This document shows positions 6,623 through 33,228 of a stretch of 64,000 nucleotides of DNA, one piece after another. The notes under the pieces are model-generated. The model did no database searches. It had not been told where the DNA came from and saw only the letters and a list, made by a program, of their open reading frames with translations. Numbering within the stretch: the first letter of the stretch is position 1; the number at the start of each line of letters is the position of its first letter. This DNA comes from an uncultured Roseburia sp. Lineage in GTDB: Bacteria > Bacillota > Clostridia > Lachnospirales > Lachnospiraceae. Where the stretch lies: the NCBI GenBank assembly GCA_947573605.1, contig CANPGM010000016.1, forward strand, positions 2,205 through 66,204, read 5' to 3'. The position numbers were made by a program, and so were the translations under genes.

Positions 6623-7728
6623 TGTTGTACCCCTTTCAGAATTTCCTCCACAATACTTTTCCATTCCTCTAAAGAATGAGCGCCCGTATAAGTCTCGCCG
6701 ACAATATTTCCTTCCTTATCGACAAAAAACGTCTCCGGGACAGCATTGATTCCCGCAAGCCTTCCGTTTAATAATCCCGTATCCGGAATCAGGAACGGAT
6801 ATGTCGCGCCGGTCCGCTCCGCAAGAAGTTTTGCCTTCTCTACCACTTCTTCATCTACGCTGCCTGATTCGCCGATTGTGTCCAGCACAATTCCGACAAC
6901 ACCCACGCCCTGATCCGCCATTTCATTTTTCAGCATTTCGAGCTCCGGAATCTCTTTGACACATGGTGAACACCACGTTGTAAATATATTTACCAATGTC
7001 AGATCATAATCCGCAAACATTTCCTGCGTATAAGATTCTCCTGTAATATCTTCCATAGAGAACTCTCCCACATTGACCATTGTTGCGGAACCGGACGACT
7101 CTTCCTCATCCAGAGAAGTCATCGGGATCAATTCATAGGAAATACCTGTTATCTCCTCCTGCATCGCATCTTCAACTGCCGGATTTGTACTCAGATAATA
7201 CGAATATGCGCCGTCTTCGCTTTTACCGATTTCCTTATGTTCCGTACACCCCGTCAGCTCGTTAAGCCTGCCTGCCGCATCCGAATCATAAATACCGATT
7301 GCGCCTATCGCTTCCAGACTGTCGGCCCAGTCATAAAAACCGTTACCGCCGTTCTCTACTTCCATATCCCGCTGTTCTTCCGTCATAGATTTCCAGCATA
7401 AAAAGGCTGAGCGAATCGCCGTTTCGTCATCGTTCACTTCCCATAGAGGAAGCATCGCCACTTCCTTTTGATCCATACGCTCCAAAAGACTCTCAGGCAA
7501 AGAAAATCTCAATCCCATAAACGAATATTCGTAAACTTCCTGACTCGGAATCGTAAGATCAGACGGTTTGTACATTTCATGCTCCATTCCGGAGTCCGCC
7601 TCCAGATCCTCTACATCCGTATTGTCTTCAGAAGGGGACTTTTTTTCATTGGCACAACCGTTTAATAAGGTCAGACAGCATAAACCGGACAGAAACAAAG
7701 CGTACCATTTTTTCCTATTTATCTGCAT
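6619..7728 (-). CDS. TlpA-family thioredoxin-fold lipoprotein with long N-terminal extra domain
   Basis: Lipobox LLNGC; TWCSPC active site; AVPETFFVD cis-Pro motif. Confidence 0.85.
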   Translation of the reverse strand: MQINRKKWYALFLSGLCCLTLLNGCANEKKSPSEDNTDVEDLEADSGMEHEMYKPSDLTIPSQEVYEYSFMGLRFSLPESLLERMDQKEVAMLPLWEVNDDETAIRSAFLCWKSMTEEQRDMEVENGGNGFYDWADSLEAIGAIGIYDSDAAGRLNELTGCTEHKEIGKSEDGAYSYYLSTNPAVEDAMQEEITGISYELIPMTSLDEEESSGSATMVNVGEFSMEDITGESYTQEMFADYDLTLVNIFTTWCSPCVKEIPELEMLKNEMADQGVGVVGIVLDTIGESGSVDEEVVEKAKLLAERTGATYPFLIPDTGLLNGRLAGINAVPETFFVDKEGNIVGETYTGAHSLEEWKSIVEEILKGVQQ

Positions 7729-7795
7729 CGTTCTCATTCTCCTTTTCCTGTTTTCACAAATTTTAATCATTCCTGCAATTTTCCATCAATCGGGA

Positions 7796-8965
7796 TTATG
7801 CGCTGGCCAGTTTTTGAATCGACTCAATGATTTCCTGAAACTGCTGACGCATCTCTTCGTCTACCCAGCGCATCATGCCTTCGACATCCTCAATCTGGCT
7901 TTTTGTCAGCTCTGCGCTCTGCTCGATTCTGTCCCGAAGTTTCTGGCGTCGTTCAACAAGCTCGTGCGTCGTTTCCACCATCTCATGATGATTGGCAAGC
8001 GCCTGCGCCTGTGTAATCCATATTCTTGTGTCATACAGCTTACACTTTGAAAGCTGACGCATAAGCCGTTCCGTATAATAACTCAAATCATCATTATTAC
8101 GTTCAAACTTCTCACGCTGCTTAATCGCCTCCAGATAATACTCCCATACGGTATTCAGTTCCGCGGCATTTTCCACATGAAATTTTTCACAGCTATAATC
8201 AATTGCATTCGTAATATTTACATATTTTATTTTTATCTGATTCAACAGAACAATCGCCCGCTTAATACTTGCCTCAGCTTTTTTATATTCCGTTTTGGAA
8301 TTCATCAAACGCAGACTAATCAGGCTGACTCCCGCCACCGCGCAGAAAATAAGAATCGTCCATCCAAGCTGCATGGGAATTTCCAGAATAAACTGTAAAA
8401 TTAGCAGTACCAGCGCGGCGGTAACGGAAAGGCCGATTACAATATATACTGCATTTTTCAGCTTTTTCTGCTCGTGAATCAAATCTTCTTTAAACAGCTG
8501 CCAGCCTTCTTTTTCACGCTCCAGATACTTCATATCTTTATTCAGCGTATCACGGTAGGCTTCGTTTGACTTCAGCCGGTTGATAGCGCTCGGAACATTC
8601 TGCTCCTCCTGCTGCATCTGCATATACTGTACATCCGTAATTTTACGCTCCGTATGAAGAAATTCGTCGCGCGCCTTATTCAGACTCGTGATATTGTAAG
8701 CGATTTCCGTCAGCGCCGCACGCTCATCCTCAGGCAGCTCTTCAATTGCCTGAATATCATTTAAATAAGAAGTTACCACACGATATTCCGCCTTTATATC
8801 GTCAATCTCCCTTGCCGTCTGAAGCGCCTGCTCCAAATGCTCCACAACGTATTGTTCTACCTTCTGCGGGCGTTTTTTATCCCACTCCGTAAGGACATGA
8901 TCATTTAATTCGTCAAACTTTTTTTCCAGAGTTTTTTCTTTTTTTCTTTTTTTAAAAAAATGCAT
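7796..8965 (-). CDS. Uncharacterised coiled-coil protein with two central TM helices
   Basis: 389 aa, helical/charged flanks and hydrophobic AVYIVIGLSVTAALVLLILQF / LGWTILIFCAVAGVSLISL pair. Confidence 0.75.
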   Translation of the reverse strand: MHFFKKRKKEKTLEKKFDELNDHVLTEWDKKRPQKVEQYVVEHLEQALQTAREIDDIKAEYRVVTSYLNDIQAIEELPEDERAALTEIAYNITSLNKARDEFLHTERKITDVQYMQMQQEEQNVPSAINRLKSNEAYRDTLNKDMKYLEREKEGWQLFKEDLIHEQKKLKNAVYIVIGLSVTAALVLLILQFILEIPMQLGWTILIFCAVAGVSLISLRLMNSKTEYKKAEASIKRAIVLLNQIKIKYVNITNAIDYSCEKFHVENAAELNTVWEYYLEAIKQREKFERNNDDLSYYTERLMRQLSKCKLYDTRIWITQAQALANHHEMVETTHELVERRQKLRDRIEQSAELTKSQIEDVEGMMRWVDEEMRQQFQEIIESIQKLASA

Positions 8966-8976
8966 GCTCTTTACCC

Positions 8977-9810
8977 TTATATTTCACAATGATTGATATA
9001 TTCCGCTTTCCATCCGTAAAGCTGCTTTTTGAGTTCTCCATCTTCCAACAGATCGCCGCCGCTTTGCCGCAGCCACTCTTCTACCTGCTCCGCAAAACTT
9101 TCCGCCGCCGCTTTGCCGCCTGCTTCAATCAGTCTGTCCGTAAGCTCTTTTTTCTCCGCCTCCGCAATGGAGTACCGCTTTGCCGCAGCGTCAAAGTCCG
9201 TCCTGTCTTTCTGATACCAGAAACACGCAAGCGCACAATGCAAAGTAACCTGATTTCCGTTTTCCTCATATGCTTTTAAAAAACAGTCGGCAGCTTCCCG
9301 GAATAAAAATAATCCGGCATAGGCGGTTCCCAGATTATGCCGGATATTTCCGGTAAAAACCCGGTTCTCCCTGCATTCTTCCTCCATAGACAAAAGCTTT
9401 TGATATTCCGACGCCGCACGATGATACTTCTTCTGTTCCATATAGCGGTCCGCTCTGATTTTTCTGCTTTCAAACGGAGACTTTGCCTGCATTTTTGAGA
9501 GTGATTCCAGTATACGCTCCGCAGCTTCCTCATTGCAATAGGCCGTCTTTTCCAGTAAAAGCGACACTGCCTGCACCGGATGCCCCGCCTTTTGTCCGCA
9601 GAGCCGAAGTTCGTCCGCAAGCGGTTTCGCGCTCAGTTCTTTTTCTACCCATCCGAAAAAAGATTCCTGAAAAAGAGATTCCTCAATCAGGTATGGATTC
9701 TGTTCCATACAATAACACAATTCTTCGAGCGAGTAAATATTGACGGAATAATTCTCCAGATAATACGGCGTTTCCGCCGTTTTAAACCGACATAGCAACA
9801 ATTCCCCCAC
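8977..9810 (-). CDS. TPR-containing uncharacterised protein
   Basis: ADRYMEQKKYHRAASEYQKLL and HNLGTAYAGLFLFREAADCFLKAY TPR-like helices; 11-bp spacing to neighbours. Confidence 0.75.
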   Translation of the reverse strand: MGELLLCRFKTAETPYYLENYSVNIYSLEELCYCMEQNPYLIEESLFQESFFGWVEKELSAKPLADELRLCGQKAGHPVQAVSLLLEKTAYCNEEAAERILESLSKMQAKSPFESRKIRADRYMEQKKYHRAASEYQKLLSMEEECRENRVFTGNIRHNLGTAYAGLFLFREAADCFLKAYEENGNQVTLHCALACFWYQKDRTDFDAAAKRYSIAEAEKKELTDRLIEAGGKAAAESFAEQVEEWLRQSGGDLLEDGELKKQLYGWKAEYINHCEI

Positions 9811-17190: not shown

Positions 17191-18105
17191 TTATTCGAAT
17201 ATTGCAAACTCATATGTCATTGAAATAATGTACTCCCCCTTCGGATCGCTTACAATCGTAATTTTATCTCCCGAAGATTCGTTCCGATAAACCGCCTCCG
17301 TCCGATCCAGGTCTGCTCCGAAGAAGACCGTTCCTTCAAACGCATCCGGCAGACCATATACGCCGTCCTCTTTATGAACGATTCCGGACAGCGGCTGACC
17401 GACGGCCGCTCCTTTCCCGAAAATCATCTGGCTCCCTTTTACGGTCACAGACATGAGCGCGCATTCCTGCCACGGCAGTTCCTGTTCCGTTCCGTTTAAA
17501 ACAGCGATCCAGACCTGTTCGTCCGGATTGTGCAATGTAATCTGCTCGTAAGGCTTTACCTGCCTGTCACAGGTAAATTCCACATAATTCGCAATATCCT
17601 TTAACGATATCAGTTCTCCCTTCCACTGTGCCAGACGGGAAAACTGATCCGCGGCGAGAATCTCTTTCGACGGTTTTATCCAGTCGAAATACTTCGACAG
17701 CTCGGTTAGATTTGTAATCGTAAGCCCCAGGTAATTATTGCCTTCCGCACCCACAACCAGACTTTCCTGTATAGAGTCAACATTGATCCCGAAATAAGAC
17801 GGCGACGCATAGCAATATCGTACCTGATAAAACCCTGGATTTAGCGACGCATCCTGTGAAAATCCGTTTTCCTCATTTAAAACAACGCTGTAAGAACGCT
17901 GTGTCTGTTCGTTTATCATATAAACTTCAATCCTAAGGACCTTTTTTAAATCGCCGTTGAGCGTTTCAAACTCTTTCGGAACCTCTTTAAGTTCTATCAC
18001 GCATGGAATTTTACCCTCGTCCAGCTTACCGCTCCGGATACAGCCAGTCAGAAAAAACATAAAAAACAATAAAAAACCCGTACAAACCCATCGTTTTCGT
18101 CTCAT
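17191..18105 (-). CDS. Uncharacterised lipoprotein
   Basis: Signal peptide with lipobox FLTGC; 33 bp upstream of the J-domain gene. Confidence 0.75.
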   Translation of the reverse strand: MRRKRWVCTGFLLFFMFFLTGCIRSGKLDEGKIPCVIELKEVPKEFETLNGDLKKVLRIEVYMINEQTQRSYSVVLNEENGFSQDASLNPGFYQVRYCYASPSYFGINVDSIQESLVVGAEGNNYLGLTITNLTELSKYFDWIKPSKEILAADQFSRLAQWKGELISLKDIANYVEFTCDRQVKPYEQITLHNPDEQVWIAVLNGTEQELPWQECALMSVTVKGSQMIFGKGAAVGQPLSGIVHKEDGVYGLPDAFEGTVFFGADLDRTEAVYRNESSGDKITIVSDPKGEYIISMTYEFAIFE

Positions 18106-29227: not shown

Positions 29228-29337
29228 TGTTTGACTGTATTATATCACCTCAGGCGTATTTGTCAATCCTGTTTTTCTATTTGGACACAAGAATGGCACA
29301 GTCGCTCTTAAGACGACTATGCCGCTTTATCAGTTAC

Positions 29338-31152
29338 TTATATCTGAAACCGATGTGTTTCCTCATTTTGTCTGTCGCTTAATTCTACCAGCTTTTGCGT
29401 ATCGGTATAACACTCGTCAATCGAATCTGATACAAGCTGCATACCGGCGCTTGTTTGTTCCGCAGAAGCCGAGCTCTCCTCAACCACGCTCCCAAGATTC
29501 GATATAGAATCGGAAACGACAATTTTCAGTTCGTTTAGCACTTCGGTCTGTCTGCCGATTGTCTTTGCAACATCATCTACCGTATTTATTTCTGCATACA
29601 GATTTTCAAATGCAGTTTGTGTCTCCTGAAGCTGCCGCTGCTGTTCATTTACATTCGTAATCACTTCTTGCATCCGTTCTGAAGATACCACTGCATTCGT
29701 CGTAAGTTCTTTTACAACAGATTCGATTTCCGCCGCACTCCCTGCCGATTCCTCCGCAAGTTTGCGGATTTCTTCCGCGACAACTGCAAAGCCTTTTCCG
29801 GCCTCTCCTGCACGGGCGGATTCAATACTTGCGTTCAATGAAAGCAAATTTGTCTGGGACGCCATACTTTTAATGATTTCTACCATATTGTTAATATGGA
29901 CCGCGGATTCATTCGTCTGATTTGTCTGTTCCGAAACCACTTGTATTGCGCTGTTGGTAATCTCCGTAATTTCATATAAACGTTTAATACATTCTGAAGC
30001 GCCGTCCGAAAACTTCATCATTGTGCCTACGGACACGGATAACTTATCCATCTCGTTTTTCTCGACGTCGATGACATCGCCAAGCTCCTGTACCTTTACG
30101 CTGACTGTTTCCGTCTCGTCCGCCAGACTGGCGGCTCCTCGCGCCATTTCCATAACCGCCTGATTTGTATTGTTAATACTTTCTGTGATGTTTCCAAACT
30201 TATCGCTGAAATCCGTACTGCTTTCTTTTAACTGCGTACTTGCTTCTCCGATCTTGCCTATCATTCCTGCAAGCGACCGCTTTACCGCATCCATAGACTG
30301 CGCGATTCTGCCGACCTCATCCGATCGTTTTAAAAGCGCGGGATCGATTTCAAAAGAAAGGTCACCTTCCGATACCCGCTGCAGCGCCGCCGCGACTCTC
30401 TGAATCCCGCCTGCAAGCCGTCTTCCGAAAAGAATGGACATAATAGCCGCCAATGCAAACAAAATCAAAATAGATACTGCATAAGCCATCAGCATTCTGT
30501 AAAACTCCTGTCTGATTTCCGTTTTCTTTGTCTCTATTTCCGCATTCATATCATCTATGTAGTTACCGGTAGCAATCACCCAGTCCCACGGCTCAAATAT
30601 TTCGGAATAGGCAAGCTTAGGCGCAACCGTTACGCCGTCTGCTTTGGTAAAGTAAAACTCATTATACCCGCCGCCTGCTTCCGCTGCCGATACAATACTC
30701 TGAGTGATCTTTATGCCGTTTTGATCGGTCAGATCATAGCGGTTGGTTCCCTCCTGCTCCGTAAGAATCGGATGCATAACCAAATTATAATCGGCGCCGT
30801 CAATCCACAGATAGCCGGAATCATCGTCGCGATACCGCATACTTCGAATCGCTTCCTTTGCCATCGTCATGGCTTCTTCTTCTGTCATCAGACCGGCTTT
30901 AGAACGTTCGTAGTATGCTTCCACAATTTTAATTGCACCCTGTATTTCGGACTTGATTTCCGTCTTATACCCGTCGTACATTGCCTCTTCATATGTTTCC
31001 ATGTCTTCCTTCATAAATTTTTGCAGAAACGTAATGCCAAGCGCTCCAAAGACGACCGCCGTTACCGCTATCAGAGAAAGAATCATAGCCACCAGTACCG
31101 TTGCCAGACTCTTTGACCGCTTTTTACCGTATTCCCTGTTTTCATTCCCCAT
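29338..31152 (-). CDS. Methyl-accepting chemotaxis protein with Cache sensor
   Basis: GYLWID...MHP...DQNG...KLAYS...WDWVIATG Cache domain; [31 protein letters not shown]. Confidence 0.93.
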
Positions 31153-31763
31153 TATAATACCTTCTCTTTCACTTCTTTTTCCTGTTCAGACTGCAGATCT
31201 TCCTGCATTTTCTCCATAACGGCAATTCCTTTATACGTTTCTTCCACGTCCTCCTCCGGTCTCCACGCCCGCCCGAATTTTACATCCTTAAACAGCGCCG
31301 CCAGTCCGGTTATTTGCTTTAAACGCAGTATTTCATCCCGATCCATGCCCAGATGTTTGGCAATCCAGGAATCCGATCGTCCCATTTCATGGAGTTCTCT
31401 TACGATATTGCTCATCAAATCGACATCATGGCTTCCCCTTGCCCGGTTATGCCGGATGGTACTTGCCATACGCTGGTCAATCGGCTTTTTTATCACGGAA
31501 ACCGGCAGCAGACCGTTTTCTCTTTCATAGATATCCCGATGTTCTAACATAATCCGATAGCGATGGAACCCGTCGACAATCACATAAATATCTTTTGCGC
31601 TGCTGTAGCAGCAGACAATCGGCATTGTATATCCGTCCGCCTTGATACTTTCGTAAAGCAGTTTCATTTCGGGCGGCGCCACCGAATTTGGATTATAGGT
31701 ATTCGGCTTTACTTTCTCAATCGGAACCGCTATCACTTCATATACCGGGCTTTTATACTCCAT
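31152..31763 (-). CDS. ibrB: IbrB-like ParB/sulfiredoxin-fold protein
   Basis: PNTYNPN...DGYTMPIV...IVDGFHRY...[12 protein letters not shown]; follows the IbrA-like gene with overlap. Confidence 0.8.
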
Positions 31764-33084
31764 ATTCCATTTCCTCCACAACCTTATATTTGCGCTCAAG
31801 CACATCGATACGTTTTTTCTGCTCCCTCGTTATGCCGAATCCCATAAAACGGCAGATATGGTCATTTTTTAATATACAGTAGCACATCCGCTTCCAGCTC
31901 GGTATATCCTTGCACGTTTTGATATCGTCCGTATTGTCCGGAATATTTCCGATAAAAATCACCCGTGTCTTTTGACTTCTGGTATAATTGGATACGCCGT
32001 TCCGGCGAATCTGATAGCCGTGTTCCTCCAGTTCCCTGATCGTGTCCTCGTTCAGACCTCCTCCGGTTTTATGCCAGAATTCAATTGAAGTATTAAACTT
32101 TTTCGCATAATTATTTCGGAGTCTTGCAGGCAGAGTATCCAGCAGAAACATCGTATACGACTTCCAGGTATAGCCTTCGGGCAGCGTTATGTTCCGATAC
32201 CCCATCGCCTTCGTCCTGCCGTAAATGCTCGCAAAGTTGGCGCCCTGCACCCTTCCCACCAGCTTTACCCAGATCTCGGGATCGATGACGCGGTACAGAT
32301 TGAGCGCATCCCTCGAATAATCGTTGAACGGAGATGCCACCCGCATTTGAGAAATCTTTAAACCCGCTTTGTAATAAAGGTCATAAAGACGATTATAATC
32401 GTATCCGAACTCGTAATTGGCATGCCAGACATCCCGTGAAGTCCAGTCATACATTGGAGACGCGCACCAGACATCTTTAAATTCCTTGCTGATCCAACAG
32501 AGTCCGTTATAGCCGTATTTTCTGTTTAAAAAACCGTTATAACGCTGCAGGGACTCGTCCGCCCGCATACCAAGCAGGCAAACCGTCTTTTTTTTGCCGT
32601 GCGACAGACGGTACCAGCGTCCGAACTGCCTCGCAAGATCTTCCTGATGCATACGATAACGATATGTACTGATCGGGTTATTTTCCATGTTTATCACATA
32701 TTCCTTGTCCGGCATTTCTCTGACCCAGACTTCCTTCTTTGTATCGTCCCACGGATACCAGTACATTTCATAGTTGCCAAGCGCCGTCCTTGTCGCCATC
32801 GGAAGACATACCCAGTATGATTCTACCTCATCTTTAATCCTTTCAAACGTTCGTTCGATATACTCCGACGTTACCGTATACTGCGCTTCAAAATCCTGAT
32901 GGAACACACCGACGTTCCGTTGCGGATAATACTTTTTTCGAAAATCCAATACCATATTTAAAAGCAAGCCGCTGTCTTTCCCGCCGGAAAATGAGACATA
33001 GACATTGTCAAACTCTTCAAAAAGATATTTCATCCGCATTAAAAAAGCATCATATACGTTTTCTTCCAATAGCCTTTTTTTCAA
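31753..33084 (-). CDS. ibrA: IbrA-like PAPS-reductase/PP-loop protein (DUF3440)
   Basis: VSFSGGKDSG PP-loop, LGMRADESLQR, SPMYDW, MRVASPF, PSWKRMCYCILKND; TTG start 33084 behind GGAGG. Confidence 0.82.
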   Translation of the reverse strand: MKKRLLEENVYDAFLMRMKYLFEEFDNVYVSFSGGKDSGLLLNMVLDFRKKYYPQRNVGVFHQDFEAQYTVTSEYIERTFERIKDEVESYWVCLPMATRTALGNYEMYWYPWDDTKKEVWVREMPDKEYVINMENNPISTYRYRMHQEDLARQFGRWYRLSHGKKKTVCLLGMRADESLQRYNGFLNRKYGYNGLCWISKEFKDVWCASPMYDWTSRDVWHANYEFGYDYNRLYDLYYKAGLKISQMRVASPFNDYSRDALNLYRVIDPEIWVKLVGRVQGANFASIYGRTKAMGYRNITLPEGYTWKSYTMFLLDTLPARLRNNYAKKFNTSIEFWHKTGGGLNEDTIRELEEHGYQIRRNGVSNYTRSQKTRVIFIGNIPDNTDDIKTCKDIPSWKRMCYCILKNDHICRFMGFGITREQKKRIDVLERKYKVVEEMEYGV

Positions 33085-33110
33085 ATTACACTCCCTCCTG
33101 CTTCCATAAT

Positions 33111-33176
33111 TTACCAATTTTGGAAGAAATTGGTAATCTTCTCTATTAATTTACCATATCAAAGAACTAAATTCAA
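33111..33176 (-). promoter_or_regulatory. Promoter and operator of the ibrAB-like operon
   Basis: TTGAAT(33176)-17-TAAATT(33153); perfect TTACCAATTT-N6-AAATTGGTAA inverted repeat at 33111-33136. Confidence 0.6.
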
Positions 33177-33180
33177 CAAA

Positions 33181-33228
33181 ATACGACAAAAGCGCTTATG
33201 TCTGTAGGCATAAGCGCTTTTGTCGTAT
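33181..33228. terminator. Hairpin after the rsiV-like gene
   Basis: Perfect 20-bp inverted repeat ATACGACAAAAGCGCTTATG / CATAAGCGCTTTTGTCGTAT. Confidence 0.75.

Follow-up and report, generated by a model that had tools for sequence, protein, structure and literature searches.

IbrA/IbrB-type gene pair in an uncultured Roseburia: a helicase-less Bacillota clade with a candidate operator and a possible role in DNA modification

Introduction

What do a PP-loop enzyme and a ParB-like protein accomplish together when their genes overlap in a bacterial chromosome? This question is raised by a gene pair, ibrA and ibrB, in a 64,000-nucleotide stretch of DNA (hereafter, the window) from an uncultured Roseburia sp. 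of the family Lachnospiraceae (GenBank assembly GCA_947573605.1, contig CANPGM010000016.1, positions 2,205 to 66,204 of the forward strand). A preliminary description of the window had placed an IbrA/IbrB-type pair at 31152–33084, and had assigned one product to the PP-loop/3′-phosphoadenosine 5′-phosphosulfate (PAPS) reductase fold and the other to the ParB/sulfiredoxin fold. Our analysis reproduced these coordinates exactly, with both minus-strand open reading frames intact, and agreed with both fold assignments. It is close to certain that the pair belongs to the IbrA/IbrB family, known as YbdN/YbdM in Escherichia coli K-12. The copy in the window is an ordinary member, one of thousands of near-identical cassettes, and what is new here is a well-supported helicase-less clade of the family in the Bacillota, the patchy occurrence of the pair within the genus at a site that differs between species, and a putative promoter and operator array that belong to the cassette. 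The preliminary description had not mentioned how common such cassettes are, the SNF2 helicase of the phage relatives, the promoter and operator, or the translational coupling of the downstream chemoreceptor gene to ibrB.

The family is large, with members in gut Bacillota and E. coli K-12 as well as in numerous phages that have been cultured. The preliminary description had called its biochemistry unresolved, correctly so, in that the literature we searched holds no paper that solves it. The authors of the FCL-2 study refer to IbrA and IbrB as “proteins of unknown function” (PMC4541368), and the comparative-genomics papers on the Dnd and bacteriophage exclusion (BREX) systems cover the analogous DndB/DndC and BrxP proteins and omit the IbrA/IbrB family. 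The copy in the window leaves the question of substrate and product as it was before; its added value lies in the helicase-less clade that it represents and in the candidate operator that precedes it.

Family Membership and Gene Structure

The first gene of the pair, ibrA (31753..33084, minus strand), encodes a protein of 443 aa with a PP-loop domain of the PAPS_reduct fold followed by DUF3440, and the second, ibrB (31152..31763, minus strand), encodes a protein of 203 aa with an N-terminal domain resembling those of ParB, Noc, and KorB and a helix-turn-helix. In Pfam, IbrA matched PAPS_reduct (PF01507, E = 2.1e-9) and then DUF3440 (PF11922, E = 3.6e-87), and in PHROGs it matched phrog_2302 (2.4e-97). 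The PHROGs match of IbrB was phrog_2159 (1.8e-80), and its Pfam match to ParB_N (E = 3e-05, 24.4 bits) was slightly below the cut-off of 26.3. When compared with the proteins of E. coli K-12, IbrA was 28% identical to YbdN over 425 aa (E = 7e-59) and IbrB was 52% identical to YbdM over 162 aa (E = 4e-57). The similarity to YbdN/YbdM and the DUF3440 match bear out the family assignment of the preliminary description.

The pair in the window has several features in common with YbdN/YbdM and their island paralogues IbrA/IbrB of ECOR-9, namely the PAPS_reduct and DUF3440 architecture of IbrA, the IbrB motifs YNPN, DGFHR, and RHNRARG, and the gene order with its overlap. In contrast, the IbrA of the window contains an insert of ~37 residues (about residues 340–377) that is missing from YbdN. 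The regulatory region also differs, because E. coli has the gene of the LysR-type regulator CitR upstream, whereas the window has an array of TGGNA sequences, described below. In E. coli, ybdNM is repressed by CitR (PMC9068703); the other papers that name the pair do no more than annotate it.

The longest frame of ibrA extends over 33117..31753, and the start codon is likely the TTG at 33084, which is preceded at 7–8 nt by AGGAGGG (33099–33093). The 443-aa product that begins at this TTG matches an entry in a public protein collection exactly, and the end coordinate given in the preliminary description was therefore right. The ATG of ibrB at 31763 is preceded by GGAGGAA, and the start of ibrB overlaps the stop codon of ibrA (31755–31753), the overlap being 11 nt.

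Conserved Residues and Predicted Structures

We compared IbrA across 38 diverse homologues with identities of 31–63%. The near-invariant or invariant positions were the PP-loop SGGKDS (32988–32971, minus strand), which is intact in the window, D64, E66, D213, and D218, and also G172-x-R174-x-x-E177-S178, N231, Y234, R278, G281, and D408. The sole conserved cysteine was C93, which was present in 36 of the 38. Because C93 alone is conserved, both a catalytic cysteine of the CysH type and an iron–sulfur or dyad site of the DndC type are excluded. Iron–sulfur or persulfide chemistry was considered for IbrA and rejected, since these homologues have no conserved set of cysteines.

The AlphaFold model of IbrA had a predicted local distance difference test score (pLDDT) of 86.6. 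Its first ~240 residues matched CysH, CysD, TilS, and the PAPS domain from human FAD synthase (E ~1e-6, template modeling (TM) score 0.55–0.64), and further fold matches included TtuA, NcsA, LarE, and NAD synthetase. When the IbrA sequence itself was searched against the PDB, no match was returned.

In IbrB, the motifs YNPN, E32, DG, and DGxHR and a 12-residue motif were invariant in the Bacillota, the Alphaproteobacteria, and the phages of Mycobacterium and Flavobacterium. In the window, DGFHR lies at 31574–31560 and a second motif of 10 residues at 31463–31434, both on the minus strand. These invariant motifs look more like an active site than a mere DNA-binding surface. IbrB was also better conserved than IbrA, with identities of 81 and 63%, respectively, at one phage locus. 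Across its two domains, the nucleotide-binding one and the helix-turn-helix, the model of IbrB (pLDDT 83) resembled Noc, KorB, and ParB (E = 3e-7, TM score about 0.5), whereas its matches to SerK, SbnI, and sulfiredoxin were limited to the N-terminal domain.

The likeness to the ParB/Noc/KorB clamps, which depend on cytidine triphosphate (CTP), lies in the fold of these first two domains. The DGFHRY of IbrB aligns with the GERRxR CTP box of Noc, so that the arginine-rich motif is replaced, and the 10-residue motif stands at the site of the ENLQR box of the clamps, which is a positional reading. The core of IbrB comprises only ~172 residues, beyond which the sequence is acidic and variable. Only ~30 residues remain past the helix-turn-helix, and the C-terminal dimerization domain of the clamps is missing.

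Distribution of the Family and the Helicase-Less Clade

Of the 8,000 candidates examined, 6,667 proteins scored at E ≤ 1e-10, and a search of the full library gave 1,873 clusters at 50% identity. The pairing of the two genes is obligate, with ibrB directly after ibrA in 79 of 80 genome loci. Close copies (70–81% identity) were found in 5 of the 36 other species of the genus that were sampled (6 of 37 when the window genome is counted), and a single genome of a different family within the order contained a copy with 74% identity. The genomic site differed at each locus of the genus and across 80 loci from named genomes, where the flanking genes encoded a symporter, an ABC-2 permease, an amidohydrolase, CNNM, GNAT, and MutS-like proteins, and others. 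The synteny across the broad genus was too weak for the ends of an insertion to be fixed by comparison with empty sites. Between the window and its nearest relatives, the proportion of differing synonymous sites (pS) was 0.67–0.9, i.e., saturated, and that of nonsynonymous sites (pN) was about 0.10. The saturated pS and the low pN indicate that both genes are old and under strong purifying selection.

We then placed the pair in a maximum-likelihood tree of 113 IbrA rows, which was rooted at the midpoint. The clade that contains the window comprised 79 rows with a Shimodaira–Hasegawa-like approximate likelihood ratio test (SH-aLRT) value of 99, and none of these rows had an SNF2 helicase gene upstream. 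Most of the members were Lachnospiraceae, among which Erysipelotrichaceae, Oscillospiraceae, Anaeroplasma, Bacilli, and Clostridioides difficile were interspersed, and the members from the genus of the window were spread over several subclades. The sister clade (support 97) comprised 15 rows, mainly viral contigs, and all of these had the helicase. Loss of the helicase is the likelier direction of change, a reading that is kept short of proof by the midpoint rooting and the several long outgroup branches. We also looked for an SNF2 partner dedicated to the pair on the rest of the genome; the only candidate was a generic 1115-aa SNF2 protein with 27% identity on another contig, and it was rejected.

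In the viral contigs, the gene order was a phrog_16123 protein, an SNF2-type helicase (phrog_62, 1e-91 to 1e-103), IbrA, and IbrB. Cultured phages that carry the module include Lactobacillus phage phiAQ113, the Streptococcus thermophilus phages CHPC877 and D4276, phages of S. equinus, Mycobacterium phage Gaia, Clostridium scindens phage phiCs5676-1, and Flavobacterium phages. In the temperate phages that were checked (phiAQ113, CHPC877, and phiCs5676-1), the module was flanked by the endolysin gene on its upstream side and the cro/antirepressor genes on its downstream side, i.e., it lay in the lysis–lysogeny interval. These phage modules encode homologous IbrA (30–63% identity) and IbrB (52–81%) and are translationally coupled, and some copies are preceded by genes for the helicase and the phrog_16123 protein (e.g., in phiCs5676-1 and the viral contigs). 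Unlike them, the clade of the window has neither the helicase nor phage genes, and the copy studied here is a natural minimal form of the system.

Several single observations were made on the phage relatives. A helicase-less ibrAB with 79% identity was present in three viral contigs (L039, 2735–4237; L040, 3933–5684; L052, 2305–4018), at a distance of 2–4 kb from a large serine recombinase gene, and one of the three adjoins ParA/ParB genes. This arrangement suggests carriage on a phage-plasmid or an integrative element, and these contigs indicate that the clade can also travel on mobile elements. Another viral contig (L044) has a 100-aa open reading frame between ibrA and ibrB (9325–9627), for which there is no space in the window. 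In Mycobacterium phage Gaia, the IbrB homologue gp104 (L140, 4308–5207) is extended at its N-terminus by a domain of ~125 residues that is annotated in its record as ectoine-synthase-like; this fusion might hint at the ligand.

A Putative Promoter and a Candidate Operator Upstream of ibrA

Because synonymous sites are saturated among the relatives, conserved non-coding sequence 5′ of ibrA is informative. A putative sigma-A promoter (33148..33176, minus strand) consists of a -35 element TTGAAT (33176–33171), a 17-nt spacer, and an extended -10 element TGG-TAAATT (33156–33148); with 8 of 12 matches it was below the threshold of the promoter scan, and it was read from the sequence. The arrangement TTGTTGAA ... 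TGnTAAAT(T) recurs 5′ of ibrA in the relatives. TTGTTGAA was present at 14 of 78 helicase-less loci, which is 40-fold over the flanking DNA, and the extended -10 element TGnTA[AC]A[AT]T was present at 36 of the 78 (16-fold). We infer that the cassette has a recurrent promoter of its own.

The putative promoter is followed, ahead of the ribosome-binding site, by a candidate operator (33102..33135, minus strand) that consists of four TGGNA-type half-sites in phase, TACCA-N5-TTCCA-N4-TGGTA-N5-TGGAA, and includes the 10-bp inverted repeat TTACCAATTT/AAATTGGTAA. In the helicase-less clade, pairs of half-sites of the form TGG[AT]AA / TT[AT]CCA recur at a distance of one helical turn, as direct or inverted repeats. 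Within 150 nt 5′ of ibrA, TGGNA pairs with a 4–5 bp AT-only spacer occurred at 29 of 79 loci, compared with a mean of 0.12 loci in shuffled upstream sequences (maximum 2 in 200 shuffles), and the rate was 103-fold that of the flanking DNA. The whole 3.08-Mb genome contained three tripartite arrays, two of which are the overlapping ones at the ibrA leader, and a genome-wide search for a regulon with the strict motif yielded only about a 2-fold excess over shuffles. The window offers a well-delimited candidate operator that is amenable to gel-shift and reporter assays.

The binding sites of AbrB in Bacillus subtilis, as determined by chromatin immunoprecipitation and footprinting, are bipartite TGGNA sequences with AT-rich spacers of 4 or 5 bp, and their half-sites may be direct, reverse, inverted, or everted (PMC3738160). 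The predicted array has the same composition, i.e., at least two TGGNA sequences with a 4–5 bp AT-rich spacer, although the half-site in the ibrA leader (TGG[AT]AA) is more specific than the AbrB consensus. The fit to this consensus suggests transition-state or sporulation control of the cassette. The only AbrB-domain protein in the assembly of the window, which is 97% complete, is a 188-aa SpoVT homologue (locus L143, 1105–1671), whose AbrB-type domain is encoded at 17806–17970 of contig C15. The sequence TGTCGAA, the form of the Spo0A box, was also enriched upstream of ibrA (11 of 78 loci, 16-fold).

The leader was also considered as an RNA. Matches to Rfam families in the ibrA leader were limited to sub-threshold noise. 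In the leader RNA (33075–33145, minus strand), UUUCUUCC could pair with the ribosome-binding site GGAGGGAG (-13.7 kcal/mol, z = -2.08), and a hairpin that hides the ribosome-binding site would be a weak alternative to a DNA operator.

Elsewhere in the genome, contig C34 contains TTTTGTCGAG around 7724–7800, followed by TTTCCAAAATATGGTAA ~35 nt on. This composite is intergenic, and lies after a valyl-tRNA-synthetase-like gene and upstream of open reading frames of 84 and 348 aa. The ibrA control regions of the relatives have the same composite, and the regulator of ibrA may have another target here.

Proposed Function and Alternative Explanations

What might the pair do? We propose, at a probability somewhat short of even, that IbrAB is an ATP-dependent adenylating enzyme that is directed to DNA by IbrB. 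IbrA would be an ATP pyrophosphatase belonging, among the PP-loop enzymes, to the branch of the PAPS reductases, and would transfer AMP onto an oxygen of its substrate, after which a nucleophile would displace the AMP. Its relatives TilS, CysD, FMN adenylyltransferase, and DndC carry out adenylation of this kind. IbrB, as the obligatory partner, would bind nucleotide and DNA and direct or gate the reaction of IbrA, so that together the two proteins would bring about or control the covalent alteration of DNA or of a ligand bound to it. In this scheme, the copy in the window would descend from phage modules that bear the SNF2 helicase, and its clade would work without the helicase and spread horizontally among Bacillota chromosomes as a unit of promoter, operator, ibrA, and ibrB. 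The phased TGGNA array would mediate repression by an AbrB-domain host regulator, for which SpoVT alone was found here, or by IbrB itself. The data establish the family, the folds, the conserved motifs, the obligate pairing, the purifying selection, the clade structure, and the conserved cis-element; the adenylation chemistry, the DNA target, and the repressor are the proposed parts of the scheme. An extension of the proposal is that IbrA/IbrB performs an undescribed ATP-dependent covalent modification of DNA, that in sporulating Bacillota the helicase-less chromosomal form has come under a transition-state or forespore regulator (an AbrB-domain protein such as SpoVT), and that the modification would accordingly be introduced in the spore or once growth has ceased; taken as a whole, we regard this extension as rather improbable.

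Several results weigh against the proposal. In the papers searched, no modified base, substrate, or binding experiment was found for any member of the IbrA/IbrB family. Neither a conserved cysteine cluster nor a sulfur-donor gene is present to point to a nucleophile for IbrA, and a fold search of the model found no structural relative of the DUF3440 half of IbrA in the PDB. A canonical or short AbrB protein was not detected in the 97%-complete assembly. Furthermore, the TGGNA array was not found in the helicase-linked and (alpha)proteobacterial relatives, despite a helix-turn-helix in IbrB that is near-identical to that of the clade. This absence argues against IbrB as the protein that binds the array, and weakly favors a host factor. 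Sandt and Hill reportedly found that IbrA/IbrB activate prophage eib genes in ECOR-9, and no other published phenotype is known; such activation could be explained equally by a regulator and by a modifier.

The possibility that IbrAB is mainly a transcription regulator is the first to be weighed. IbrB would then act in the manner of KorB or Noc, as a nucleotide-gated DNA clamp or a repressor; the role of IbrA would be to make or consume the ligand of IbrB or to modify IbrB, with no modification of DNA. This explanation agrees with the fold of IbrB, which matches KorB, Noc, and ParB including the helix-turn-helix, and with the database name of the family, “co-activators of prophage gene expression.” In E. 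coli, the loss of CitR raises the expression of ybdNM together with motility, chemotaxis, and cys genes, with no causality established (PMC9068703). Nevertheless, IbrB has DGFHRY in place of the GERRxR CTP motif and lacks the dimerization domain of the clamps, no IbrB-type site is common to the phage and chromosomal versions, and the linkage of the phage copies to SNF2 helicases is more suggestive of an activity on DNA than of the control of promoters. We therefore regard regulation as a possible but fairly unlikely main function. The helicase linkage likewise points to DNA when we consider that the target could be free nucleotides, transfer RNA, or a small molecule, the outcome being nucleotide depletion, a signaling nucleotide, or a changed RNA base. 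TilS, TtuA, NcsA, LarE, and NAD synthetase are among the fold relatives of IbrA, and the SerK and SbnI kinases and sulfiredoxin, relatives of IbrB in the ParB/sulfiredoxin fold, carry a motif of the DGxHR type, all of which is compatible with such a target. However, IbrB retains a full helix-turn-helix, and its best fold matches span both domains, whereas those to SerK and sulfiredoxin cover the N-terminal domain only; a target other than DNA is thus unlikely in our judgment.

Defense or anti-defense of the Dnd, Ssp, or BREX type 4 kind, with phosphorothioation or a similar self-marking and the restriction part elsewhere or lost, would account for the patchy, horizontally transferred distribution and for the position of the module in the moron or lysogenic-conversion slot of temperate phages. 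DndB/DndC form an analogous pair, the weak matches of IbrA to DndC and BrxP point the same way, and in these systems, including BrxP, a PP-loop enzyme of the PAPS-reductase fold and a ParB-superfamily protein act on DNA, as would IbrAB. However, IbrA differs from DndC in that DUF3440 replaces the C-terminal part of DndC and the iron–sulfur or dyad cysteines are absent. The DndC model TIGR03183 gave 21.2 bits against a cut-off of 290.4, and PADLOC, which has no family for either protein, returned only weak local PP-loop matches to DndC and BrxP (23.6 bits for BrxP). The combination of a full-length BrxP with PglZ, BrxC, and BrxL genes that characterizes BREX type 4 was not found, DndA, DndD, DndE, Ssp, or Brx genes were absent from the neighborhood, and the neighbors at more than 80 loci were housekeeping genes. 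The defensive role that the preliminary description had entertained gained no support, there being no PADLOC family, no defense island, and no nearby restriction partner, and we consider this explanation improbable. A plain assimilatory PAPS/adenosine 5′-phosphosulfate reductase (CysH) has a negligible probability. It agrees only with the Pfam domain name and the fold likeness of the N-terminal half of IbrA, but a conserved C-terminal catalytic cysteine (ECGLH-type) is absent across the 38 homologues, the SGGKDS loop is of the ATP type, and no NCBIfam CysH model matches; the 190-residue DUF3440, the obligate ParB-like partner, and the carriage by phages also speak against it. Plain sulfate assimilation, the outcome that the preliminary description had set against its own reading, is thus excluded at the sequence level. 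A nucleic-acid or nucleotide modification system, as the preliminary description had proposed, is still the most plausible reading. Tractable relatives for biochemistry are available in E. coli ybdNM and in the phages of S. thermophilus, Lactobacillus, C. scindens, and M. smegmatis.

Genomic Surroundings of the Gene Pair

The neighboring genes in the window encode CopA, CsoR, a PocR–methyl-accepting chemotaxis protein (MCP), a GGDEF protein, ArsR, an HMA protein, an MCP, an anti-sigma/sigma pair, and phosphofructokinase. All the genes within 10 kb beyond the immediate flanks are concerned with housekeeping or metal homeostasis. The window contains no serine integrase gene, and the G+C content shows no compositional anomaly. 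The statements in the preliminary description that the pair lies outside any prophage, and that no phage, dnd, or restriction genes flank it, are consistent with these results.

The unit upstream of ibrA encodes a sigma factor of the extracytoplasmic function (ECF) type and a DUF3298 anti-sigma protein. It ends in an intrinsic terminator (33181..33228, minus strand) with a 20-bp stem, 8 G-C pairs, and then TTTTGTTG, which separates ibrAB from the sigma/anti-sigma operon. The sigma/anti-sigma pair was present in 18 of 60 other members of the genus that were sampled, and ibrAB was not adjacent to it in the 7 in which the flanks were inspected. A link between the two units was rejected because of the strong terminator between them and the occurrence of the sigma pair in relatives without ibrAB. 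Downstream of ibrB is the gene of a Cache/HAMP MCP (29338..31152, minus strand). It was considered as a functional partner and rejected, since no MCP gene was consistently found downstream in 80 related loci. The adjacency of the sigma/anti-sigma and MCP genes to ibrAB is a local accident.

The ATG of the chemoreceptor gene and the stop codon of ibrB have one base in common (TAATG, 31150–31154), and there is no terminator between the two genes, the next one being at 29323–29295. This overlap and the position of the next terminator make it probable that ibrA, ibrB, and the MCP gene form a single transcript, which would then also serve for the translation of the chemoreceptor.

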